From Candidatus Poribacteria bacterium (lineage in GTDB: Bacteria; Poribacteria; WGA-4E; PCPOR2b), in NCBI GenBank assembly GCA_965247655.1, contig OZ252032.1:1861101-1925100 (forward strand): a stretch of 64,000 bases of DNA. The letters run 5' to 3'. The notes under the pieces are model-generated. The model was given only the letters and a program-made list of their open reading frames with translations, was not told where the DNA came from and ran no database searches. Shown one piece after another: positions 7,787 through 50,608 of this stretch. The position numbers and the translations under genes were made by a program. Within the stretch, counting starts at the first letter, position 1, and each line of letters opens with the position of its first letter.

Positions 7787-8053
7787 ATGTTACTTTTAAC
7801 CTGTCCCAACTGCGGGGATCGAAATGTCAGCGAATTCCACTTTGGTGGGGAGCTTGGTTCACGTCCTAAAGATCCCTCGGCTGCTAGTAATGCAGAATGG
7901 ACAAACTATCTTTACATGCGCAATAATGTTATGGATGCACAGACGGAGTGGTGGCATCATAGTGCCGGCTGTGGTCTATGGTTTCTGGCTGAACGGCACA
8001 CACGGACTAATGAGGTGATAAAGACTTACCCTTACGCGAAACGTGATGCGTAA
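7787..8053 (+). CDS. soxD: sarcosine oxidase subunit delta
   Basis: 88 aa; N-terminal LTCPNCGDRNVSEFHFGGE typical of SoxD. Confidence 0.85.
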   Translation: MLLLTCPNCGDRNVSEFHFGGELGSRPKDPSAASNAEWTNYLYMRNNVMDAQTEWWHHSAGCGLWFLAERHTRTNEVIKTYPYAKRDA

Positions 8054-8091
8054 TGTATGATGCCTGAAATGTGATGGGGATCTCCCTATTT

Positions 8092-8214
8092 TGTGATTAG
8101 CTCATGTAAACAGAAAGTGCAAAGCACGAAGAGAAACCGAGTTTTCAAGTCCGAGAGGACCCCGTGACCGGGGAAAAAACTCGGTTTCTGTTGCATGATT
8201 TCTTAATATGAGCG
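8092..8214 (+). repeat. structured intergenic repeat, copy B (soxD-soxA spacer)
   Basis: CATGTAAACAGAAAGTGCAAAG ... nested hairpin AAACCGAGTTTTcaaGTCCgagaGGACCCCGtgacCGGGGaaAAAACTCGGTTT ... TTTCTTAATATGAGCG; ~85% identical to copy C. Confidence 0.65.
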
Positions 8215-8253: not shown

Positions 8254-11187
8254 ATGCGAACTGAACAAAATACACTAACAACAACGTCCAATCGACTTCA
8301 TCCGAAGCAGGGTGAGGCCATCGATCGCTCTACTACGATTCGATTCACCTTTGATGGGGTGGAGTACACCGCCTACCCCGGCGATACCGTCGCTTCGGCT
8401 CTGACAGCGGCGGGTGTCAAAGTCTTGAGCCGCTCGTTTAAGTATCATCGTCCGCGTGGGTTGCTCTGTTGCTCTGGACATTGCCCCAACTGTCTGGTGC
8501 AAATTGGAGATGAGCCAAACGTCCGCGCCTGTACCAGACCCGTCGAAGCGGGGATGGATGTGCGCGCACAGAACGTTTGGCCCTCGCTCAACCGAGATCT
8601 GCTGTCCCTGACCCAACTGGGATCGCGCTTTATGCCGGTCGGGTTTTACTATAAGACTTTCATCCGTCCCCAAAAGCTATGGCCCCTCTACGAACATACG
8701 TTACGCCATATCGCTGGCTTAGGTGAAGTTAGTCTTGATACACCCCCAGGCGAGTTTGACAAGCAATATCTACATACCGATGTCGTCGTAGTCGGTGGTG
8801 GACCGGCAGGGATTAGTGCGGCATTGAGTGCAGCCGAAGCCGGCGCGCAGGTGTTGTTTTTCGACGAGAACTCAGCCCTCGGAGGCCACCTCCGCTTCAC
8901 CGTTCCTCTGGAATCTCCCTCGACCACGCAAGCAGCCAAAGACCTACCTGAACTGTTAGAAGCGATTGATCAGCAACCGAATATTACGGTTTTCGCTGAT
9001 ACGAGTGTTCTGGGTTGGTATCAGGACAACTGGCTTTGCGCCGTGAAGGGGGAGCGTCTGTTTAAAATACGGACGAAATCGATGGTTGTAGCGACCGGTG
9101 CCTACGAAACACCGCTTATTTTCGACAACAATGACCTGCCGGGCGTTATGTTGGGGAGTGCTGTACAGCGTCTGCTTCATCTTTTTGGTGTCCTCCCCGG
9201 CAGACAGGTTGTGATTGTAACCGCTAACGAGGATGGCTGGGATGTAGCCGCCGACCTCCAGTCGCTGGGGGTAAACGTGGCAGCTATCGTAGAAGAACGT
9301 GAACATAACGCCTGTTCCAGTCCATACCGGGATGGATTGGCGAATGCCGGCGTCCCGGTGTTCTATCGACATACCATCCTCGAAGCCCTCGGTTCAAACG
9401 CAGTAAGCGGGGCAAAGATTGCACGCCTTGACGGACGGGACGAAATCTCTCCCGCAACGACACAGTCGCTGCAGTGCGATCTCATCGTGACGAGTATGGG
9501 CTGGACACCTGCTACTGAACTTGCTTATATGGCGGGTGGAAAATCGGAATACAATGAAGAACGAGCGGAAATATTACCGGTATCCACTCCACCCGGTATC
9601 TATGTGGCAGGACGAGCGGCAGGAACACACGCCGTTGATTTACAGATTGTCGAAGCGCAGCAGGCAGGATCTAACGCAGCCGCTTTTGCGGGATTTGGTG
9701 AATTCGATGAATCGACAGCGCAATCTTCTGGTGTCTTAGAACCGCGCCGTACTTCCGAGCGGGTGTGCATTCCCGGCAAAAAGAAGCGATTCGTGTGTTA
9801 TTGCGAAGATGTCACCGACGAAGATGTGGAAACGGCGATTGCGGAAGGGTACGACAGCATCGAGTTACTCAAACGATACAGTACCATCTCAATGGGACCC
9901 TGTCAGGGTGCCATGTGCTCGATGAACACCATCCACCTCTGTGCTCGCGCCAACGGTTGGACGGTACAGGAGACCGGCACGACGACCGCGAGACCTCCTA
10001 CTACGCCGGTGACGCTAGGGGCTTTGGCAGGTCAAAATATGGAGCCGGTACAGACAACCCCGATTCATCAATGGCACCTCGATCAAGGTGCAAATATGAT
10101 GGTTGCGGGGCTTTGGCTGCGCGCAAACCACTACGACGATCCAGCGGCGGAAGCGTTGGGGGTCCGTAATCGGGTCGGTCTTATTGACGTAAGCCCGTTG
10201 GGAAAACTGCAGCTTACCGGTCCCGGAGTCCCTGAGTTACTGGAACGCATCTACACCAATCAGTGGGGTAATCTCCGGGTTGGACGGGTGCGCTACGGCG
10301 TGATGTGCAATGACGAAGGCGTAGTGCTAAACGACGGGGTTTGTGCACATCTGAGGGATGATACGTGGTACATGACCACCACCTCTACCGGCGCAACAAC
10401 GATCTTTGAGTGGCTGCAATGGTGGTTGCAATCAGGGTGGGGGGAAGGTATCCATTTAACTGATCTGACGGATACCTATTCCGCCTTCAACTTGGCGGGT
10501 CCCCAATCGCGGGCGGTACTAGAGAAATTAACAGAGCGAAATCTCGCCAACAAAGCCTTCCCTTACATGCGTATCCGCTCTGCTAGGATTGCGGATGTGC
10601 CGTGTCGATTGCTGCGTATCGGTTTCACAGGTGAGCTCTCCTACGAAGTTCATTGTCCGTCGGGTTATGCGCTGCACGTTTGGGAAGCACTGATGGACGC
10701 AGGCAGGGAGTTTGGCATTGTTCCATTTGGCGTGGAAGCACAGCGCATACTGCGATTGGAGAAGGCGCACATTATTGTCGGACAGGACACCGACGCCATG
10801 TCTGATCCGCTCTCTGCTAATATGGCGTGGACGGTAAAATTGGACAAGCCCGATTTTCTGGGAAAACCTTCTCTGATGCGAATCTCTGCCGAAGGGCCGA
10901 AGCAGCTTCTGGTAGGCTTCAAGATGGCTGAATCCGATGTTGTTCCCGCTGAAGGGTTACAGATTGTTGAGCCCGAAGCGGATGGCGGTCTGAGAATTAT
11001 TGGTTGGGTCACCTCCAGTCGATTCAGCCCGACCTTAGAGGAGGCAATTGGACTCTGTTGGCTGCCGGCGGATATAGCATCTCAAAACGGTGCTTCTTTT
11101 ACGATTCGCATGGACGGAGATCTGGCAGAGGCGCGTGTCCATCACGATGCCTTTTATGACCCCGACGGAGAAAGGTTACGCGCATGA
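8254..11187 (+). CDS. soxA: sarcosine oxidase subunit alpha (2Fe-2S / FAD-NAD binding / GcvT-like C-terminus)
   Basis: 977 aa; N-terminal 2Fe-2S Cys cluster (CCSGHCPNC), VVVVGGGPAG, C-terminal aminomethyltransferase fold. Confidence 0.9.
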   Translation: MRTEQNTLTTTSNRLHPKQGEAIDRSTTIRFTFDGVEYTAYPGDTVASALTAAGVKVLSRSFKYHRPRGLLCCSGHCPNCLVQIGDEPNVRACTRPVEAGMDVRAQNVWPSLNRDLLSLTQLGSRFMPVGFYYKTFIRPQKLWPLYEHTLRHIAGLGEVSLDTPPGEFDKQYLHTDVVVVGGGPAGISAALSAAEAGAQVLFFDENSALGGHLRFTVPLESPSTTQAAKDLPELLEAIDQQPNITVFADTSVLGWYQDNWLCAVKGERLFKIRTKSMVVATGAYETPLIFDNNDLPGVMLGSAVQRLLHLFGVLPGRQVVIVTANEDGWDVAADLQSLGVNVAAIVEEREHNACSSPYRDGLANAGVPVFYRHTILEALGSNAVSGAKIARLDGRDEISPATTQSLQCDLIVTSMGWTPATELAYMAGGKSEYNEERAEILPVSTPPGIYVAGRAAGTHAVDLQIVEAQQAGSNAAAFAGFGEFDESTAQSSGVLEPRRTSERVCIPGKKKRFVCYCEDVTDEDVETAIAEGYDSIELLKRYSTISMGPCQGAMCSMNTIHLCARANGWTVQETGTTTARPPTTPVTLGALAGQNMEPVQTTPIHQWHLDQGANMMVAGLWLRANHYDDPAAEALGVRNRVGLIDVSPLGKLQLTGPGVPELLERIYTNQWGNLRVGRVRYGVMCNDEGVVLNDGVCAHLRDDTWYMTTTSTGATTIFEWLQWWLQSGWGEGIHLTDLTDTYSAFNLAGPQSRAVLEKLTERNLANKAFPYMRIRSARIADVPCRLLRIGFTGELSYEVHCPSGYALHVWEALMDAGREFGIVPFGVEAQRILRLEKAHIIVGQDTDAMSDPLSANMAWTVKLDKPDFLGKPSLMRISAEGPKQLLVGFKMAESDVVPAEGLQIVEPEADGGLRIIGWVTSSRFSPTLEEAIGLCWLPADIASQNGASFTIRMDGDLAEARVHHDAFYDPDGERLRA

Positions 11188-11897: not shown

Positions 11898-13925
11898 ATG
11901 GCAAAGAACTTGACGCGTGAAAACCTCATCGAGTGCGGGCTGGACGCATCCACGTCGGATCGCTTGCTAGAGCGCATCAATCCGTTACTCGCATCGCTTC
12001 CAGCTGCAGCCTGTTGGGGAAAAATTTCGCAAACCATTCTAACCCCCGACCACCCATTCGCACTTCATCAACTCCTCCACAATACGGTTTTTGCCGACTG
12101 GGCGGGTGTGGCTGCCCCCGGTTGGTTTCCGGCTGAAGATAAAATTGCGAAGACAAACATCGCGGCGGTCATGCAGGAGTTAGATCTCGATTCCTACGAG
12201 GCACTCCATTCGTGGTCGGTGCACCATCGCGCCGATTTTTGGGAGTTGATGATTGAAAGGCTTGGAATCCAATTCCATCGAAAATTCAGTGAGGTGGTGG
12301 ATCTGTCCGAGGGAGATGAGTTTCCCAAGTGGCTTGTCGACGCACAGCTTAACATCGTTGAGAGCTGTTTTAACGCACCAAGTGATGCTACCGCGATTGT
12401 GTTTCAGTCGGAAGGTTCGATGCTTTCGACGATGACCTACGGTGAACTCAACTTCCTGATCAATCGGGTTGCCAATGGATTGGTGGATGCGGGTTTCCAG
12501 CCGGGCGACGCTATCGCTGTTAATATGCCGATGCACGCCGAATCGGTCCCCATCTATCTAGGCATCATTAAAGCGGGCGGTGTCGTGATTTCGATTGCTG
12601 ACAGTTTCGCGCCGGATGAGATTCAGATGCGTCTGCGCATCGCAAATGCGAAAGGGATTTTCACGCAGGACTCTATCCACCGTGCAGGAAAGCAGTTGCC
12701 GTTATATGCGAAGGTGGTTGATGCCAACGCGCCAAAAGCGATTGTGCTTTCCCGTGGGGACGAGCCCCCAGTTGAATTGCGAAACGGTGATTTGACTTGG
12801 GAGGGGTTTCTCAGTGATAGTGATGAGTTTGACGCAGTCGGTTGTGATCCGCACGACCACACAAACATCCTGTTTTCTTCGGGAACGACTGGAGAACCCA
12901 AAGCGATTCCGTGGATGCAAACTACGCCCATTAAATGCGCTGCGGATGCGTATCTACATCACGACATTCAGCAGGGAGATGTGCTGGCTTGGCCTACCAA
13001 TCTTGGGTGGATGATGGGACCATGGCTTATCTACGCAAGTTTAATCAATCGGGCGACAATTGCATTATACGATGGTGTCCCGACAGAAAGGGAGTTTGGC
13101 GAGTTTGTGCAGAATGCTCGCGTTACGATGCTCGGTGCCGTGCCAAGTCTAGTGAGGGCTTGGAAAAACACGGGTTGTATGAAAGGGCTTGATTGGCACG
13201 CTATCAAAGCCTTCAGTTCTACAGGTGAGTGTTCCAACTCGGAGGATATGCTGTTTCTGATGTCCACCGCGGGATACCGTCCGATTATCGAGTATTGTGG
13301 GGGGACAGAGATAGGCGGTGGCTATCTCACCGGTACAACTGTCCAACCCGCCGCCCCGGCGACGTTTACAACGCCTGCTTTGGGACTGGATATAGTCATC
13401 TGCGATGAGGATGGTCAGCCGAGCGATAACGGAGAGGTTTTTGTGATCCCACCCTCCATTGGACTCTCTACCGAATTGTTAAATAAAGACCACCATGAGG
13501 TGTACTTTGAAGGAACCCCTCAGTTTGCGAAGATGCCGCCTCTCCGTCGTCATGGAGATGGGGTTGAACGATTGGCTAATGGCTATTACCGGATCCATGG
13601 GCGTGTGGATGATACGATGAATCTCGGTGGTATCAAAGTCAGTTCGGCGGAGATTGAGGAAGTTCTAAACTCCGTGAGTGGTATTCGAGAAGTTGCAGCG
13701 ATTGCTGTGCCGCCGCCCGATGGGGGTCCCAGCCAACTGGTCATTTATGCTGTACTTCTGCCGGGAACAGATACCCAATCGTTGACCACCTCCCTACAAT
13801 CGGCGATCCGGGGGCATCTCAATCCGCTTTTTAGGATCCACGATGTCGTCGTTGTCGATGCTTTGCCTCGAACCGCCTCCAACAAAATCATGCGCCGTAT
13901 TCTGCGCGATGAGCAGTCCCGTTAA
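11898..13925 (+). CDS. AMP-dependent synthetase/ligase (acetyl-CoA synthetase-like acyl-CoA ligase)
   Basis: 676 aa; AMP-binding signature SSGTTGEPKA, ACS-like N-terminal extension, C-terminal GRVDDTMNLGGIKVSSAEIE. Confidence 0.8.
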   Translation: MAKNLTRENLIECGLDASTSDRLLERINPLLASLPAAACWGKISQTILTPDHPFALHQLLHNTVFADWAGVAAPGWFPAEDKIAKTNIAAVMQELDLDSYEALHSWSVHHRADFWELMIERLGIQFHRKFSEVVDLSEGDEFPKWLVDAQLNIVESCFNAPSDATAIVFQSEGSMLSTMTYGELNFLINRVANGLVDAGFQPGDAIAVNMPMHAESVPIYLGIIKAGGVVISIADSFAPDEIQMRLRIANAKGIFTQDSIHRAGKQLPLYAKVVDANAPKAIVLSRGDEPPVELRNGDLTWEGFLSDSDEFDAVGCDPHDHTNILFSSGTTGEPKAIPWMQTTPIKCAADAYLHHDIQQGDVLAWPTNLGWMMGPWLIYASLINRATIALYDGVPTEREFGEFVQNARVTMLGAVPSLVRAWKNTGCMKGLDWHAIKAFSSTGECSNSEDMLFLMSTAGYRPIIEYCGGTEIGGGYLTGTTVQPAAPATFTTPALGLDIVICDEDGQPSDNGEVFVIPPSIGLSTELLNKDHHEVYFEGTPQFAKMPPLRRHGDGVERLANGYYRIHGRVDDTMNLGGIKVSSAEIEEVLNSVSGIREVAAIAVPPPDGGPSQLVIYAVLLPGTDTQSLTTSLQSAIRGHLNPLFRIHDVVVVDALPRTASNKIMRRILRDEQSR

Positions 13926-13953: not shown

Positions 13954-15729
13954 CTACTTTAGGATGAGCATCTTGCGGGTGGCGGAAAAATCTCCTGCTG
14001 TCAACGTGTAAAAATACAAACCACTTGCTACGGTCTCACCAACCTCGTTCCTCCCATCCCAATACGCCGCTTTTGATCGATTTTCATAAACTGCTGCGTT
14101 TTGATGTCCCACGTCAAGCGTGCGGACAACTTGACCGCTGCTGTTATAGATGGTCAATGTCACGAAAGCATCTTCCGCCAACCGGTAGGGGATCCATGTT
14201 TCAGGGTTGAACGGATTTGGATAGTTTGCAAGCAAGGCTGTTTCATCAGGAACCAAAGATGCTAAAAGGAGTTCAAGAGTAGTAATTCCCTCATGGAAAG
14301 TCAGAGACCCATCATCCACCTCACGTGCCATATCTATCCATTTCTGAATCATCATTGAATTCAGATCTGGCACATACTCTGCACTAGGTGCTTTGGAAGT
14401 TGTAGATTTCCCCAAGTATTGAGCAATCGCAACCAAGTCCACAATATCAACACCTCCATTCCCAGTAACATCCACTTGTGGATTATCTGTACCAAGATTC
14501 TGACCAACCAGCACCAAATCGTCAAGGGTTACATTCCCATCCCCATTCACATCATAATTTTGAACTCTAAGATTACCTGCCCTTAGTGTGTGCCGCATAT
14601 GCTGCTGGTTTACATTAGTCAGAGTTAGGTCTGTGTTCCAGAATCTACTATCCCCAGCTGCTTTTGCTTCAAAGGTTATTGAAAACAAAATACCAGTTCC
14701 ACTAGCACCTTCTGTACTAAGACGTACAGAACTAAATCCACTAACCACGCCTTCATTATTACCGATTGTACCTTCTAAATTATAAACGTCCTTTCCCCCC
14801 TTTTGTAAGAAATTACCGGGTTCAACGGAAGTCACCGACAGCACACTCGGATTGAAGTCAAAATGTCGAATTTCCCAGCCGGCTAACTCGACGACATCTT
14901 CGATAATCAAATCGATTGTGAATGTCTCACCAACCGCTACAAATGCTGTCTCATCAGGTATAGGGTTAAGAGAAAAGATAATTGTTGTATTATCGACCCT
15001 AACCCCCCGCTCTCGAAGTGCAGGTATCAGTATATTAATCGATTCATCATTCAAGGGGTTTCCCGCGACAACAATCCAATCCCCAGCCCCTATTCCACGG
15101 TTTTCTATTAATGGCGTTAGGTCTGATATAGAGTTATCCCTAAGATTAAGCCCATAAAGATTGAATAAGCCTCTCAAAGGCGTTATATCCGTTACCGAAT
15201 TACCATCAAGATCCAGGTATCCCAGGTTCGCTAATCCTACCAAAGGCGTTATATCCGTTACCGAATTACCACCAAGATACAGGTCTCTCAGGTTCGTTAA
15301 TCCTCTCAAAGGCGTTATATCCGTTATCGAATTACCATTAAGATACAGGTCTCTCAGGTTGATTAATCCTACCAAAGGCGTTATATCCGTTACCGAATTA
15401 CCCTGAACATCCAGGTATCTCAGGTTCGTTAATCCTCTCAAAGGTGATAGATCTGTCACACGGTTATTCCAAAAAGGCAGCCCTTCCAGATTAGTTGCAT
15501 ATTCAAGTCCAGTTAAATCAATTATGTCCATACTTCCTCCTCGGTCTAGGGAGTACAACCTGTTCATCTCTTCACTAGTGATTACGGCCCCATCGGCCTT
15601 ACCAAGTTGCCTATTGATAGCAGCACGGAGATTAGGGTCAGGAATATCTATGACCTGTGCTGTTGCTGTCAACGGAAGCGAGAAGCAAACCAACAGAAAA
15701 AAAGTGAAACGAAAAAATGATAGTTTCAT
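13954..15729 (-). CDS. secreted modular surface protein: signal peptide + ~7 LRRs + cohesin-like domain + dockerin-like Ca-binding pair + T9SS C-terminal sorting domain
   Basis: likely start MKLSFFRF (GGAGA RBS); 22-aa LRR units LxxLxxLxLxxNxVTDITPLxG; DVNGDGNVTLDDL / DVTGNGGVDIVDL dockerin-like loops; C-terminus NYPNPFNPETWIPY...LTIYNSSGQVV...GLYFYTL...KMLILK matches T9SS CTD. Confidence 0.75.
   Translation of the reverse strand: MKLSFFRFTFFLLVCFSLPLTATAQVIDIPDPNLRAAINRQLGKADGAVITSEEMNRLYSLDRGGSMDIIDLTGLEYATNLEGLPFWNNRVTDLSPLRGLTNLRYLDVQGNSVTDITPLVGLINLRDLYLNGNSITDITPLRGLTNLRDLYLGGNSVTDITPLVGLANLGYLDLDGNSVTDITPLRGLFNLYGLNLRDNSISDLTPLIENRGIGAGDWIVVAGNPLNDESINILIPALRERGVRVDNTTIIFSLNPIPDETAFVAVGETFTIDLIIEDVVELAGWEIRHFDFNPSVLSVTSVEPGNFLQKGGKDVYNLEGTIGNNEGVVSGFSSVRLSTEGASGTGILFSITFEAKAAGDSRFWNTDLTLTNVNQQHMRHTLRAGNLRVQNYDVNGDGNVTLDDLVLVGQNLGTDNPQVDVTGNGGVDIVDLVAIAQYLGKSTTSKAPSAEYVPDLNSMMIQKWIDMAREVDDGSLTFHEGITTLELLLASLVPDETALLANYPNPFNPETWIPYRLAEDAFVTLTIYNSSGQVVRTLDVGHQNAAVYENRSKAAYWDGRNEVGETVASGLYFYTLTAGDFSATRKMLILK
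14980..15475. repeat. tandem ~66-bp coding repeats (LRR units) inside surface-protein gene
   Basis: opposite-strand frame reads periodic KGVISVTELP; nucleotide-level periodicity visible. Confidence 0.7.
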
Positions 15730-19571: not shown

Positions 19572-19655
19572 GAAAAATCTCCTTTTGGAATGGAACGTGA
19601 AACGTGATGCGTAAAAGGTAAGGGTTAAAATCTTGACTTCAATACGTGGTGGACA

Positions 19656-30566: not shown

Positions 30567-30595
30567 TTGACAGCCACCTACAATTGTGTTAGAAT
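30567..30595 (+). promoter_or_regulatory. consensus sigma70-type promoter (TTGACA-17 bp-TAGAAT) upstream of aapJ
   Basis: TTGACA at 30567..30572, 17-bp spacer, TAGAAT at 30590..30595; ~95 bp upstream of the start. Confidence 0.5.
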
Positions 30596-30688: not shown

Positions 30689-31705
30689 ATGCGTAGATTT
30701 TGGTTTAGCACTTTAGTACTCGTTCTAGCTATTTCACTGATAGTGCCACCATTTGTAGGCGCGCAGGACAGTGTATTGGACAAAGTAAAAAACAGGGGAA
30801 GGCTCGTTTGCGGGGTATACGGCGGCTTGCCCGGTTTCAGTTTTCTCAGCCAAGATGGTAAGTGGAGTGGCTTTGACGTGGATTATTGTCGGGCAATCGC
30901 TGCAGCTATTCTCGGTGATCCAGATAAGGTTGAGTTCGTGCCGTTAAAGGCACCAGAACGTTTCTCCGCGCTCCAGACAGGGGAGATAGATGTCTTAATC
31001 CGAAACACTACTTGGACGCTTACCCGCGACACGCAAGTGGGGGCTGACTTCGCCCCACCTACCTTTTACGATGGGCAGGGATTCATGGTGCATAAAAAGT
31101 CCGGCATCACCTCCTTAGAGGAGTTGGCTGGAGCAAGTGTCTGTGTCACCGCTGGTAGCACGACTGAGCTAAATCTAGCGGATACGATGCGGGCTTTAGG
31201 GGTAGATTTTAACCCCGTGGTATTTGAGGAAATTGATACCCTTTACAATAGTTATGAACAGGGGCGTTGTGATGTTGTTACAAGTGATAAATCGCAGCTA
31301 GCCGCTCGTCGCAAAGTCTTTAAGGATCCGGACGCCCACGTTATCCTTGATGTAACCATCTCGAAGGAACCGTTGGGACCTGTCACCATCCACGGTGACA
31401 ACAAATGGAACGATGCCGTTAGCTGGGTTGTTTATGCCACATTCTTCGCCGAGGAGCACGGAATTACCCAATCGAATGTCAGCACTTATAAATCCAAAAA
31501 TCCAGAGATCGGACGTTTCTTGGGCAAGACTGGAGATATGGGCGGGAAACTCGGTCTGTCGAAGGATTGGGCGCATCAGGTTATCGCTGCTGTCGGCAAC
31601 TATGGTGAAATTTTTGAACGTAACCTCGCTCCTATTCGTCTGCCGCGCGGTGTCAACAAGCCTTGGACTCAAGGGGGTCTGCTGTACGCGATGCCGTTTC
31701 GTTAA
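30689..31705 (+). CDS. aapJ: general L-amino acid ABC transporter substrate-binding protein
   Basis: 338 aa with signal peptide; AapJ/BztA-like SBP; cognate permeases/ATPase lie 3.7 kb downstream. Confidence 0.8.
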   Translation: MRRFWFSTLVLVLAISLIVPPFVGAQDSVLDKVKNRGRLVCGVYGGLPGFSFLSQDGKWSGFDVDYCRAIAAAILGDPDKVEFVPLKAPERFSALQTGEIDVLIRNTTWTLTRDTQVGADFAPPTFYDGQGFMVHKKSGITSLEELAGASVCVTAGSTTELNLADTMRALGVDFNPVVFEEIDTLYNSYEQGRCDVVTSDKSQLAARRKVFKDPDAHVILDVTISKEPLGPVTIHGDNKWNDAVSWVVYATFFAEEHGITQSNVSTYKSKNPEIGRFLGKTGDMGGKLGLSKDWAHQVIAAVGNYGEIFERNLAPIRLPRGVNKPWTQGGLLYAMPFR

Positions 31706-31965
31706 TAGGTTTCGCAAACGCAGCACTATGACATCTATCGACAAGGTAAAAGGAATACCTTATGATACTTGAGGGGTGCTAATAATTATTGTCTGAATCA
31801 GGATTGTCAGGATTTAAGGATTTTCAGGATGAGATGACTCAAATTGACACCGATGAGCATTTGAGGCGAGGGCATCATTATTGATCCGATGCCGCATCGC
31901 GAGGCAAAGCAAGCTGAATCACCTATTAAACAGATGACACGCAAAACCCGGACGCTCATTTAACA

Positions 31966-32065
31966 AATCGTGCAAAGAAACCGAGTTTTGAAGTCCGAGA
32001 GGATCCGTGACCGGGGAAAAACTCGATTTCTCTGAGTTGTACTACACTTTCTTTTAACATGAGCG
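31966..32065 (+). repeat. structured intergenic repeat, copy C (5' of R-M module)
   Basis: GTGCAAAGAAACCGAGTTTTgaaGTCCgagaGGATCCGtgacCGGGGaaAAACTCGATTTC ... TTTCTTTTAACATGAGCG; near-identical to copy B. Confidence 0.65.
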
Positions 32066-32507
32066 AACCTATTTATGGGCACCCCTCATTTAGATAAGAA
32101 CGGTATCTGAAATTGTAGGAGATGCCTCCTAGTATCAATGTTCGGCAATACCTAAAAGCATGAAAAATCAACGACAAATTCTAAAAGAGAGAGACAGGGT
32201 GCCGCAAGCTATCCAAATGACGGTCGAACTCTTTTCGGGCATCGGTGGATTCCGCATCGCTGCTGAAAGGCACGGTATTCAGACGTTGTGGGCAAATGAT
32301 ATTTGTCCGAGAGCATGTCAAGTATACCGTAGTCAATTTGGAGACGCTGAAATTCGCCAAGGCGATATTCGAGCATTCGTGCATGAGATTCCTTCGCACG
32401 ATTTACTTACAGCCGGTTTTCCTTGTCAACCATTCAGTAGTGCGGGGAAAAAAAAGGGGCTTCGCGACCCTCGTGGGCATCTTTTCGCTGTTATTGTTGA
32501 TATTTTA

Positions 32508-33555
32508 GGGCCTTATGCTAGTTAGCTTCCCTTTTTTTTAGTTCCGATAAAAAAAGGGAAGCTAAAAAGTCCTCCAGTCTGTTACTATAGATGAACTTGA
32601 CAATCCATCTAAAACTGGAGGATAACCTTATGATAACCGATTTTGATGACCTCTGTCTATGGACTTATGTCATTGTTGATGACATTCTGATAAAACTCGA
32701 ACCATTACTCCGACGCCCAGGCCCCCCTCCCCCATGTAGCGATAGTGAGTTAATCACTATGATATTGGTTGCCGAATGTAAGGGGTGGGACATCGAAACA
32801 CAACTGCTATCCGACTTTAGCCAGCACCCCCATCTGTTCCCTATACTGCCTTGTCAGACCCGACTCAACCGGCGAAGACGCAATTTGGGGACAATCATCA
32901 ATCGGATTCGACAGATGCTCTTGTCAGACATTGAAGCGGCATCGGAGAAACTGTGTATTATTGATAGTTTGCCGATTCCAGTCATTCAGTTTCATCTGGC
33001 ACCTTCGTCATCAAATAATTGGTCATGCTATGGTGCCGATTATGGGCGGGTGGAATCGAGGAAACAGACCATTTTCGGCTATAAACTTCATCTGTTAGTC
33101 ACCGCAAGTGGGGTGATTGTTGATTTTGAACTTGCCCCGGCTTCTGCAACCGATTTATCGGTTGGTTACGAATTGCTCTCTGGACACCAAGATAAGCAAG
33201 TGATAGGGGATAAAGCCTATATTAGCAACCAAGTCAAAGACCAATTAGCTCAACTCAACCGTATCGATCTGATAACGGTCCCCCGACGCAACCAGAAACA
33301 GCAGATTTCCAGACAAACCAAGCGGTGGATTAACGAAATTAGGCAGAGGGTTGAAACGGTTAATGGTCAATTGAGTGAACAATTTCATATACAAAAGAAT
33401 CATGCGCATAGTTTCTGGGGGGTATGCACTCGGTTATACTCCAAACTCACCGCTCATACGCTATGCGTTTATCTCAATCAGCTATGCAAAAAAGAGGCGT
33501 TTTTACAGATTAAAGAGTTGGCGTTTCCAGTTCATTAGTAACTAGCATAAGGCCC
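32508..33555 (+). mobile_element. IS982-family insertion sequence (1048 bp) with perfect 17-bp terminal inverted repeats and 6-bp target-site duplication
   Basis: IRL GGGCCTTATGCTAGTTA 32508..32524, IRR TAACTAGCATAAGGCCC 33539..33555; TSD ATTTTA at 32502..32507 and 33556..33561; perfect 14-bp hairpin GCTTCCCTTTTTTT/AAAAAAAGGGAAGC just inside IRL (32525..32562). Confidence 0.85.
32630..33538 (+). CDS. IS982-family DDE transposase
   Basis: ~302 aa from the Met after a GGAGG RBS; motifs IIDSLPIPV, GYKLHLL, VIGDKAY resemble IS982 DDE_Tnp_1 transposases. Confidence 0.7.
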   Translation: MITDFDDLCLWTYVIVDDILIKLEPLLRRPGPPPPCSDSELITMILVAECKGWDIETQLLSDFSQHPHLFPILPCQTRLNRRRRNLGTIINRIRQMLLSDIEAASEKLCIIDSLPIPVIQFHLAPSSSNNWSCYGADYGRVESRKQTIFGYKLHLLVTASGVIVDFELAPASATDLSVGYELLSGHQDKQVIGDKAYISNQVKDQLAQLNRIDLITVPRRNQKQQISRQTKRWINEIRQRVETVNGQLSEQFHIQKNHAHSFWGVCTRLYSKLTAHTLCVYLNQLCKKEAFLQIKELAFPVH

Positions 33556-34405
33556 ATTTTAAGAAGGCATCGCCCACGTTATTTTATTTTGGAAAATGTG
33601 AAACGCTTGCTTCCAATGGAACAAGGGGATCATTTCGCCACAATGCTTGCCGCTTTGACAGCACTTGATTATCAGGTGGAATGGCGTTTAATCAATACGA
33701 TGCACTTTGGCTTACCGCAAAATCGTCAACGTGTGCTTATATTAGGCTCTTTGGGTATGACAGATGATTGCCCCGTTGTTAGACTTGCCTCATCAGAAGA
33801 TCTTTGTAGGATATTAGAAAGAAACTTTCCAATAATCAGGACTGTATCAAGCTGGACTGAGATTGAAAGACATAGTAAGAAATTTCCCAATTGGGGACTG
33901 GCTTGGAACGGACGCTTCTTTGCGGATAATATGGAATACTTCTCTGAAGCAAAGCCAATTGTACCCTTACGGCGGGTACTACAATCTACGGTTGACCCAA
34001 TTTTTGACTTCACCGAGAATACTTTGCAACGCTTAAAAGACAGCAAGCAAACTGATAAATTTGTTGAAGGTGTTCAAATTCTTTATAATCAAAATGGTGG
34101 TGCTCGCATGGGCTACACCGTGTTCGGTATTGACGGAGTTGCACCAACACTCACGTCTACAGCTAGCCGCCACTATGAACGTTACAAAGTGGGCAATTGC
34201 TATCGACGTTTGACAAATGTAGAATACGCTCGAATACAAGGATTTCCAGATCAGCACTGTTCAGCGGTTTCCATTTACAATCAATACTCTTTATATGGTA
34301 ACGCGATTCCACCTATATTTGGGAGTTGGCTCATTCATAAGATTTTACGGAATCATGTAACGACATTAAAAGAACCGAAGCAACAACAACTTCATCTTTT
34401 TCTCA

Positions 34406-35398
34406 ATGAGTCATCAAATTATGCCTACTAAGACTGAACTGCGCGGAGTACTTCATACACGGCTAGAACAAACTATGTCAGCGTTAAATCGCGCACTTCA
34501 AGAGATAAATCTTGAACGTCTTGAACCCGTTCTTTCACGTATCGGACGTGGGCGAACCTTGCCTCACTGGTACAAACAACTTTTTGAGTCGCAAGCTCTT
34601 CCCAACCTTGATGGTAAAACAGTTGGTAGCGTTGTTGAAATGCTTTTTGTCGCTGTTCTTGAAACCGTGACTTTTCAGGATATTGAAATACCGCCGCTCC
34701 ATATTAATCCTGCGCGAGGCGTTGATTTGCCGGATATTGACTTGAATATAAAGTCTCCCTCTCAAAACTACTGTACCAGTGAACCTTTTTTTTCAGCATA
34801 TGAGAGACTACTCGGTAGTGAATATGATGCCCTTATCATGCTAACTGATTATCAAACGCGCAAAACAAACCCGCCTTTGAAACTTCAGGTAATCAGGTGG
34901 CAATATCTCTTCAATACGCAATTGGCAGACTTTGCTCTGACTGCAATTGCCCGGAAACACCGCGATTGGTTGCTTAAACGGAGCGAGCCTTGGACACAAA
35001 AGATTTTTCGATTTTTGGCTTATGTCAATCAGAGCCATTGGCAAGCAGGGCATTCACTTCGTATCATTGACGCGATGCAAAACAGAGATGCAACACAACG
35101 TTTGGTGATTGCAGCGGAAAATGACTTTAGAGCAAAGAATATCCAACGCTTACACGCCGATAAAGAGGCAATACCTGATCATCAGCTAGAAAGTTTACTT
35201 TCTATAGCTGAGACTCAACCTCTAATTTTGGGAATTGTTGATGCAGCAGATAACTGGGTTGTGGAAAATTATAAAGATGTCGCTCGCCTTCCAAACGAAA
35301 ACGAATGGACGCGATTGCTTGCTAGTTCCCTAGATGGACAGATTGGAATGAGTTTTGCACTTCAATGGAGATACAATTTTGGACGGATATTTAGGTAA
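34406..35398 (+). CDS. putative type II restriction endonuclease (cognate of disrupted C5-MTase); no recognisable family
   Basis: 330-aa ORF overlapping the MTase stop by 26 bp; function inferred from position only. Confidence 0.4.
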   Translation: MSHQIMPTKTELRGVLHTRLEQTMSALNRALQEINLERLEPVLSRIGRGRTLPHWYKQLFESQALPNLDGKTVGSVVEMLFVAVLETVTFQDIEIPPLHINPARGVDLPDIDLNIKSPSQNYCTSEPFFSAYERLLGSEYDALIMLTDYQTRKTNPPLKLQVIRWQYLFNTQLADFALTAIARKHRDWLLKRSEPWTQKIFRFLAYVNQSHWQAGHSLRIIDAMQNRDATQRLVIAAENDFRAKNIQRLHADKEAIPDHQLESLLSIAETQPLILGIVDAADNWVVENYKDVARLPNENEWTRLLASSLDGQIGMSFALQWRYNFGRIFR

Positions 35399-35474
35399 TC
35401 AGCCGGCAAATATAGAAAATCAATGATGAACAACATAAAATATAAAAGCACAATCGCTCAAGCCGTACAACACT

Positions 35475-37909: not shown

Positions 37910-38671
37910 GTGGCTGACCTTGAAAATACCGCAGATGATTCAATTATTATCTGTGAGGATGTTCATAAATGGTTTGACGATTTCCATGTACTCAAAGGAA
38001 TTACTGCCGCGTTCAAGAGAGGGGAAAAGGTTGTGATATGCGGACCTTCGGGTTCGGGCAAGTCCACCTTCATCCGTACAATAAATCGTCTGGAAACACA
38101 CCAAAGGGGTAGAATTATCGTTGATGGTATCGAACTCAGCGATGACCTTCGTAATATAGACCGTATCCGCCAAGAAGTCGGCATGGTCTTCCAACAGTTC
38201 AACCTGTTTCCCCACCTGACGGTCCTGCAAAATGTAACGTTAAGCCCTATCTGGGTGAAGAAGCTAACAAAAGGTGAAGCGGAATCGGAGGCTTTAGCGT
38301 TATTAGAGCGGGTTGGTATTGAAGAACATGCTCACAAATTTCCCGCACATATTTCGGGAGGGCAACAGCAGCGTGTGGCAATTGCAAGGGCTTTGGCAAT
38401 GCACCCCAAAATTATGCTATTCGACGAACCAACAAGTGCCCTTGACCCCGAAATGATTAACGAAGTTCTAGATGTAATGCGTGAGTTAGCTGCGTCTGGC
38501 ATAACAATGCTGGTTGTCACACATGAGATGGGTTTCGCGCGTGAGGTGGCAGATCGAATCATCTTCATCGATGAAGGGGAGATTGTTGAAGAGGCGGTGC
38601 CTGAAGTTTTCTTCGATAACCCGCAGCATGAACGCACTCGGCTTTTTATTTCCCAAACGTTACAACATTAG
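37910..38671 (+). CDS. aapP: amino acid ABC transporter ATP-binding protein
   Basis: 253 aa; Walker [10 protein letters not shown], signature [15 protein letters not shown], Walker [12 protein letters not shown]. Confidence 0.9.
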
Positions 38672-50305: not shown

Positions 50306-50608
50306 TACATCCTCCCGTATCAATTGTGATTGGAACGTGAAACCTAATGTGTGATATGTGATGCGTAAAACAGACAGCGAATTCTTCCTTGCTTCCCCTC
50401 ACAGTTTGAGCAATGTATTCGTCTTTAATTATTCTCAATTGACCACAGACTTGCATCCATGATCGCTCCAGTCTAATGGGACCGCAATTTCAGATATGCT
50501 GAAAAGCAGTAAATCGGGTAGGTGGTCTCCAATTCTCAAAAGATGTTCTCAGAATTCGAGCGTCCCTTTCTCATCATGTGAACCGAATCGTGAACTTCTT
50601 CGAGATCC

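Follow-up and report, generated by a model that had tools for sequence, protein, structure and literature searches.

The DNA considered here is a stretch of 64,000 nucleotides from a Candidatus Poribacteria bacterium (contig OZ252032.1, positions 1,861,101 to 1,925,100), referred to below as the window. It carries an amino-acid transporter operon that encodes a periplasmic binding protein (AapJ), two permeases (AapQ and AapM) and an ATP-binding cassette (ABC) ATPase (AapP). According to the list of open reading frames (ORFs) and their Pfam matches, the last position of aapJ is 31705 and the first of aapQ is 35475, and the interval of 3,769 bp between them is filled with other features (Table 1). 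These are a hairpin repeat within non-coding DNA, a restriction-modification (R-M) pair composed of a C5 methylase (M) and an endonuclease (R), and an insertion sequence (IS). A preliminary description of this DNA had reported that aapJ is separated from aapQMP by a repeat, an R-M pair and an IS, and this layout is borne out by the ORFs and the Pfam matches.

The name aapJQMP seems reasonable for the operon because binding-protein homologues that are 81% identical to AapJ carry the Joint Genome Institute (JGI) name 'general L-amino acid transport system substrate-binding protein'. The top NCBIfam match of AapJ is TIGR01096, whose 180 bits lie under the cutoff of 256, and there is no equivalog-level match. 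The closest genome matches to AapJ are metagenome-assembled genomes of Poribacteria, with 80-82% identity. An exact-sequence lookup of AapJ gave no match, and the nearest relative returned by a scan of JGI metagenomes was only 71% identical. The gene order of binding protein, two permeases of ~400 aa and ATPase is found in the window and in 70+ related loci, as judged by Pfam and locus comparison. Spacers were surveyed in 80 genome loci encoding AapJ relatives, three of which had no aapQ match and were left aside; loci and contigs used for comparison are given below as L numbers. The spacer between aapJ and aapQ is typically ~100 bp, and it is shorter than 350 bp in 70+ of the 80 loci. Large gaps between aapJ and aapQ in Trueperaceae (L021 and L066) were considered and rejected, as they reflect longer AapQ proteins and hold no cargo. 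In L168, aapP (12168-12923) is called with 251 aa and shows 47 apparent non-synonymous differences from the window, which are probably due to a frameshift or an indel near the 3' end.

Table 1. Features of the aap operon and of the DNA between aapJ and aapQ (window positions)
Feature	Position	Strand	Basis or remark
aapJ-like periplasmic amino-acid-binding protein, 338 aa	30689-31705	+	Pfam SBP_bac_3, 2.6e-21
Putative ancestral spacer remnant, left	31706-31726	.	Matches nt 1-21 of the L177 spacer (44 bp); ends with AGCAC (31722-31726)
Non-coding filler, ~360 bp	31727-32086	.	In all same-species contigs, absent from L181
REP-like Y-shaped hairpin repeat in the filler	31973-32034	.	Arms 31973-31989 and 32018-32034
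Region upstream of M, part of the R-M cassette	32087-32159	+	80% identity with the 71 bp 5' of M in L181
C5 methylase (M), N-terminal fragment, residues 1-116, motifs I-IV	32160-32507	+	Pfam DNA_methylase, 2.3e-30, profile 3-98
IS982-family insertion sequence, 1,048 bp	32508-33555	+	Transposase match, inverted repeats, target duplication
Transposase ORF, single	32591-33538	+	NCBIfam transpos_IS982 (NF033520), 8e-60, 202 bits vs cutoff 130; also Pfam DDE_Tnp_1_3
C5 methylase (M), C-terminal fragment, motifs VI-X	33562-34431	+	Pfam DNA_methylase, 1.1e-24, profile 108-320
NspV-family type II restriction endonuclease (R), 330 aa, full length	34406-35398	+	Homologues assigned to PF27258
Cassette tail	35399-35451	.	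Ends with second AGCAC (35447-35451); homology to L177 resumes at ~35447
Putative ancestral spacer remnant, right	35452-35474	.	Homology to the empty-site spacer of L177
aapQ permease, ~395 aa	35475-36659	+	Pfam BPD_transp_1
aapM permease, ~395 aa	36675-37865	+	Pfam BPD_transp_1
aapP ABC ATPase	37910-38671	+	Pfam ABC_tran

The insert and its layers

An empty site is present in L177, a locus reached via database AapJ homologues of intermediate identity. Its AapJ is 93% identical to that of the window, and only 44 bp separate aapJ from aapQ. The neighbouring genes are the same as in the window, namely a permease gene, NFACT, aapJ, aapQMP, a cold-shock gene and a TPR gene. This synteny and the short spacers of the survey show that the genes are normally contiguous. 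The junctions of the insert were placed by aligning the empty site of L177 to the window. The left junction falls after 31726, where CGCAGCAC is followed by TATGAC, and the right junction falls after 35451, where AAAAGCAC is followed by AATCGC. The right junction is common to the window, L181 and L178. The pentamer AGCAC occurs as a single copy in the empty site of L177 and as one copy on each side of the window insert. The G+C content is 0.40-0.44 in the insert versus 0.49-0.53 in the aap genes. The 44-bp site of L177, the contiguity of the operon in nearly all loci, the lower G+C content and the occurrence of the M-R pair at unrelated loci (see below) support the view that the block is foreign DNA, which would interrupt an ancestrally contiguous aapJQMP operon.

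A cluster of 18 single-nucleotide polymorphisms found only in the window reaches across the stop codon of aapJ and the left junction (31678-31761), whereas the remainder is 98-99% identical to the same-species contigs. The cluster looks like a short recombination patch derived from a divergent allele.

The IS982-family element is located within the M gene, between motifs IV and VI, and not beside the R-M pair. Its terminal inverted repeats, GGGCCTTATGCTAGTTA, are perfect over 17 of 17 positions (left, 32508-32524; right, 33539-33555), and a 6-bp target duplication, ATTTTA, is found at 32502-32507 and 33556-33561. Comparison by blastn with L081-L083, which belong to the same species and share 98-99% DNA identity with the window, gives a break between 32507 and 33556 with a 6-bp overlap. 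None of the ~11 further contigs of the species that were retrieved and extend into M has the element, and they carry a single ATTTTA. A full-length copy with 92% identity is present in L181 at a different place, downstream of aapP. A comparison of the element with PLSDB plasmids gave no match. Its insertion is a separate, recent and strain-specific event. It is probably polar on R because the start of R overlaps the end of M, the overlap being 26 nt.

The non-coding filler between the left junction and the cassette appears to be a third, independent layer of the insert because the cassette as found in L181 lacks it. The homology upstream of M in L181 covers only the last ~72 bp before the window M (32087-32159). 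The filler holds no remnant of the DUF932 or ORF371 gene that precedes M in L178/L179. The hairpin in the filler resembles repetitive extragenic palindromic (REP) elements, and this copy is partly degenerate (z = -0.7 on the plus strand). Searches for further hairpins were made with blastn-short and with a regular expression for the exact stem. L178-180 have a simple hairpin with the same stem 3' of aapJ, and strong hairpins that are unrelated in sequence are found 3' of aapJ in many other Poribacteria spacers. No credible RNA family for the hairpin was found in Rfam, either at the gathering threshold over the whole window or at an E-value threshold over 31650-32250. The hairpin is read as a REP-like intergenic element and not as one mobile unit with the R-M pair.

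Further repeats were noted in and around these features. Imperfect 19-nt inverted repeats (31770-31788 and 32070-32088; 16/19 complementary) enclose a segment of ~319 bp that contains the hairpin, and the right arm ends at the boundary between filler and cassette. They would fit a miniature inverted-repeat transposable element, but such a match is about what chance would produce over a region as large as this, and the interpretation is not claimed. A second copy of the hairpin, with better folding (z = -5.3), lies at 8135-8186 between soxD (7787-8053) and soxA (8254-11187). This is another spacer within an operon, that of a heterotetrameric sarcosine oxidase. A second dispersed short repeat with the core GAAACGTGATGCGTAA is found at 8027-8069, 19588-19630 and 50328-50370, and one of its copies adjoins the sox hairpin. 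A repeat finder also detected a tandem array at 15105-15496 with a 66-nt period and at least 4 copies at 72-79% identity.

The methylase, the endonuclease and the TTCGAA site

The ORF of the N-terminal M fragment reads on into the IS and reaches a stop at 32525. Excision of the IS together with one copy of ATTTTA gives an uninterrupted M of 405 aa, which is 88-94% identical to intact database homologues. This reconstructed M has the full set of catalytic motifs, and it deviates at 0 of the 146 columns that are conserved in at least 95% of 118 homologues. No second C5 methylase was found within the 64-kb window. In one same-species strain (L167/L083), M carries an in-frame insertion of 48 bp at the window-equivalent position 32460 (408 aa vs 392 aa). 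The inserted DNA duplicates 42 nt of 32315-32356 in the same gene, and it may be a further inactivating lesion.

All 120 of the listed homologues of R, including P0001 with 96% identity, are precomputed as members of the Pfam family NspV (PF27258). The window R is tied to this family via P0001; the Pfam set that was scanned lacked that model and gave 0 families. Generic models of type II restriction endonucleases (NCBIfam typeII_restric_endo and PADLOC REase_II) match R weakly. Compared with the intact allele of L166, the window R has 14 residue differences, three of which fall in near-invariant columns of an alignment of 119 sequences. G33E replaces a glycine that is present in 115 of 118 homologues, D211H replaces the aspartate of the NQSDW motif (116 of 118), and L217S lies at a position that is occupied by L, I or M in all 118. 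D211H is common to the window and the haplotype with the nonsense mutation W188*, while G33E and L217S are seen only in the window. The window R is probably inactive, as far as these substitutions indicate, and the restriction gene should not be assumed to be active. The preliminary description had pictured the block as a defence islet. The R-M system in it is not intact, as M is split by the 1,048-bp IS and R carries G33E, D211H and L217S, so a functional islet is not what the sequence suggests; it appears to be disabled.

The recognition site of NspV is TTCGAA (PMC2779907). This hexamer does not occur in the 64-kb window, in which 16.9 sites are expected, and no other of the 64 palindromic hexamers is depleted as strongly. 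It is also missing from the loci of every cassette-bearing genome examined, and it is present in several cassette-free loci. TTCGAA is the probable specificity of the cassette, and the depletion of the site lends independent support to this assignment. Other palindromes are depleted as well. In the window, these are GGCGCC (1 vs 8.9 expected), GTTAAC (2 vs 11.3), GTCGAC (3 vs 11.6) and CTCGAG (3 vs 10.3), and in other Poribacteria loci the most depleted is CATATG (3 vs 47.9). The depletion of these additional hexamers points to further R-M systems that exert pressure now or did so in the past.

Spread, decay and competing explanations

No same-species contig lacks the M-R pair, and it occupies the same junction in two other Poribacteria lineages. 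In L181 (AapJ 90%, same flanks), M is 90% identical to that of the window, which matches the divergence of the flanks. Its R is internally deleted, with only the first ~90 and the last ~80 nt kept, and M is retained. In L178-180 (AapJ 76%, different neighbourhood), an extra ORF (DUF932 in L179), M (86-87%) and R (84%) lie between aapJ and aapQ. The DNA identity between the window and L178 is 86-87% for M and R versus 75-77% for the aap genes, and sharing of the cassette therefore appears to be more recent than that of the host genes. In the same comparison, no recombination tract of elevated identity was found in aapJ or aapQ beside the cassette. Unrelated loci carry the M-then-R pair as well, namely in the cyanobacterium Coleofasciculus and in Poribacteria other than those above (L182/L183; R 73%). 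The two-gene pair can therefore be regarded as the mobile unit. The preliminary description had proposed an islet dropped into the operon. Its view that foreign DNA was inserted stands, but the insertion is not recent, as the cassette has reached fixation in the species and two more lineages have it at the same junction.

The state of the cassette differs among strains. M and R are intact in L166 and L168. L167 and L083 have the 48-bp insertion in M described above, L164 and L165 have W188* in R (G34969A), and the window has the IS982-family element in M. In L169 and L170, another IS of ~1.5 kb with a DDE_5/DDE_Tnp_1 transposase lies 70 bp upstream of M, and L181 has the internal deletion of R. 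Across the population, the locus appears to be decaying by several independent routes. The IS of L169 and L170 is 1,514 bp long and encodes a transposase of 417 aa on the opposite strand (L169, 5989-7242; L170, 1750-3003). It lies at the window-equivalent position 32090, which is the start of the homology with the L181 cassette. Both R and M form mosaic haplotypes among the strains.

We consider it likely that an NspV-type cassette was acquired within a contiguous aapJQMP operon and is now decaying, with an IS982-family element in M, an independent layer of filler, and a junction that serves as a hotspot. According to this explanation, the ancestrally contiguous operon of this Candidatus Poribacteria species would have gained a C5 methylase and an NspV-family endonuclease in the aapJ-aapQ spacer. 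The cassette would be old, in keeping with its fixation in the species and its sharing with two other lineages at the same junction. The genome would then have purged nearly all TTCGAA sites. The window R would have lost its activity first, by missense changes. With R dead and TTCGAA nearly absent, selection on M would have been relaxed before the IS982-family element landed between motifs IV and VI of M; the insertion itself is shown by the sequence. Loss of R before M is the usual order in the decay of R-M systems. Loss of M would be tolerable because the IS is likely polar on R and because the genome has almost no TTCGAA targets.

Several points weigh against this explanation. The 5-bp AGCAC repeat that flanks the insert could be chance microhomology. 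Since L177 with its empty site, L181 with M only and the window lie at roughly the same distance from one another, the empty site may be either primary or the result of secondary loss. For the same three loci, spread of the cassette either vertically or by recombination would fit. The ORF of R is of full length, and its dN/dS against sibling alleles is 0.2-0.4. We infer the inactivity of R from its substitutions. The structure model of R is of high confidence (predicted local distance difference test, pLDDT, 91), but a sequence search of the PDB and a Foldseek search with the model returned no similar solved structure. G33, D211 and L217 are not interpretable because the model lacks a PDB neighbour. 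Finally, the site counts for the host come from 64 kb, and a second protecting methylase or TTCGAA sites elsewhere are possible.

An alternative is that aapJ-M-R-aapQMP is the ancestral arrangement, vertically inherited in this Poribacteria clade, and that contiguous operons arose by later loss. The preliminary description had named a shared architecture in close relatives, together with evidence of vertical inheritance, as a sign of such ancestry, and that architecture is indeed seen in the species and the genus. The ~11 other same-species contigs have M-R, the 90% identity of M in L181 is in line with the divergence of its flanks, and L178-180 (AapJ 76%) have M-R at the same junction. However, nearly all Poribacteria have the genes of the operon side by side, as do other phyla, and the syntenic L177 has a clean site of 44 bp. 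Between the window and L178, M-R stands 10 points above the identity of the flanks. The same pair is found at unrelated loci, and the insert is low in G+C. The empty site, the contiguity elsewhere and this sequence evidence still favour insertion, and we regard an ancestral arrangement as decidedly unlikely. A composite mobile element, in which the repeat, the R-M pair and the IS were inserted as a unit, is hard to believe. This is the single mobile module of the preliminary description. All three components do lie inside one gap, but the IS is flanked in M by a 6-bp duplication of its own, and same-species contigs with the remaining parts lack it. L181 has M but neither the filler nor the hairpin. 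No terminal inverted repeats surround the whole block, and the only IS copy is internal to M. Rather than one module, the block consists of three layers of different age, namely the R-M pair, the filler and the IS.

It is also unlikely, in our view, that the R-M system still restricts, with the host kept safe by another methylase, by complementing fragments of M or by the lack of remaining TTCGAA sites. Split C5 methylases exist, such as M.AquI, and this precedent, the intact ORF of R with some purifying selection, and the zero count of TTCGAA in 64 kb speak for continued activity. Against it, three near-invariant positions of R are substituted, one of them in common with the nonsense haplotype. 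The split of M falls between motifs IV and VI, and the in-frame junction is lost. The only start for the C-terminal M fragment is a TTG inside the ENV motif. Furthermore, no other C5 methylase is encoded in the window, and R is probably subject to the polar effect of the IS.

The aapJ-aapQ junction and comparison with known systems

The same flanking genes bracket a type II R-M system or its remnant in the window species, in L178-180 and in L181. Other Poribacteria carry different cargo at this junction. L011 has a 9-kb type I R-M system with hsdM, hsdS and hsdR. L016 has a type I R-M system with hsdM, an AAA_15/DUF3696 ATPase, a HEC-03A-like PIN protein and hsdS. A pair of PDC-M08B-like aspartyl proteases with a C-terminal remnant of hsdR is found in L014, a Uma2 endonuclease in L013, and an ORF of 172 aa in L173-176. 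All cargo genes are co-oriented with aap, and the sole counter-oriented gene is the IS transposase of L169/L170. None of the non-Poribacteria loci among those surveyed holds cargo. No integrase or recombinase was found in any cargo; only the 5-bp AGCAC repeat was seen. The junction thus appears, from these comparisons, to be a hotspot for defence genes inside an operon. Two ORFs inside the type I R-M operons, one of 658 aa in L011 (11105-13081) and one of 839 aa in L016 (16010-18529), have no Pfam or PADLOC match and are candidates for uncharacterised defence or accessory genes.

The orientation of the cargo also bears on transcription. The best promoter-like site of the region lies upstream of aapJ (30567-30595), and a weak promoter-like match is found in the spacer between R and aapQ (35413-35441); both are matches to the consensus only. 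Transcription of aapQMP probably depends on passage through the cargo because the cargo is co-oriented with the operon. This co-orientation argues for read-through over the transcriptional uncoupling of aapJ from aapQMP that the preliminary description had considered probable. A more far-reaching idea, which we put forward as tentative, is that the aapJ-aapQ spacer is a dedicated landing pad embedded in the operon, in which defence cargo is exchanged between lineages and kept only in the orientation of the operon. If so, the defence genes would be transcribed with aap and the permease genes through the cargo, and the expression of host and cargo genes would be coupled.

Poribacteria are a phylum with defence-rich genomes, and in this phylum the intra-operon junction is a recurrent place for defence genes. 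In an uncultured sponge symbiont, a single site seems to display the stages of R-M decay, from acquisition and site purging to the loss of R and the insertion of an IS into a dispensable M. The manner in which R is lost differs by strain and may be missense, nonsense or deletion. For annotation, three features of the window should be flagged, namely M as a split pseudogene, the IS982-family element, and an R gene of doubtful activity. Every component is of a known kind, and none changes the current understanding of R-M biology. Less usual are the hotspot inside an operon with strictly co-oriented cargo and the several independent lesions of one R-M locus.

Hotspots of defence islands between conserved core genes have been described for the pan-genomes of E. 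coli and Pseudomonas. The aapJ-aapQ junction resembles them in that one conserved gene pair encloses varied cargo (type I and type II R-M, Uma2, and PDC-M08B-like and HEC-03A-like proteins). It differs in that it lies inside an operon, the cargo is all co-oriented, and no integrase or mobility gene is present. REP and other stem-loop elements are known to sit between the genes for ABC binding proteins and permeases, for example between malE and malF and between hisJ and hisQ. The hairpins after aapJ are similar to these, and the hairpin family of the window is also found inside the sox operon. In contrast, the hairpin sequences of Poribacteria vary by species, and the window copy is partly degenerate. 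The IS shares with the IS982 family its length of ~1 kb, its one ORF, its perfect 17-bp terminal inverted repeats and its short target duplication, and it differs in having been found so far only in this Poribacteria genus.

The R-M pair corresponds to NspV-type systems in its PF27258 endonuclease, in its M-then-R order with overlapping ends, as in Poribacteria and cyanobacteria, and in the absence of TTCGAA. Unlike these systems, the window has an M interrupted by an IS and an R substituted at conserved positions, and its specificity is a predicted one. A similar case is Microcystis aeruginosa NIES-843, in which R-M loci are disrupted by ISs and TTCGAA (NspV sites) is extremely rare (PMC2779907). 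The same pairing of an IS-disrupted R-M system with the rarity of TTCGAA is seen in the window. The host here, however, is a sponge symbiont of the Poribacteria, and the population contigs show several independent lesions of one locus.

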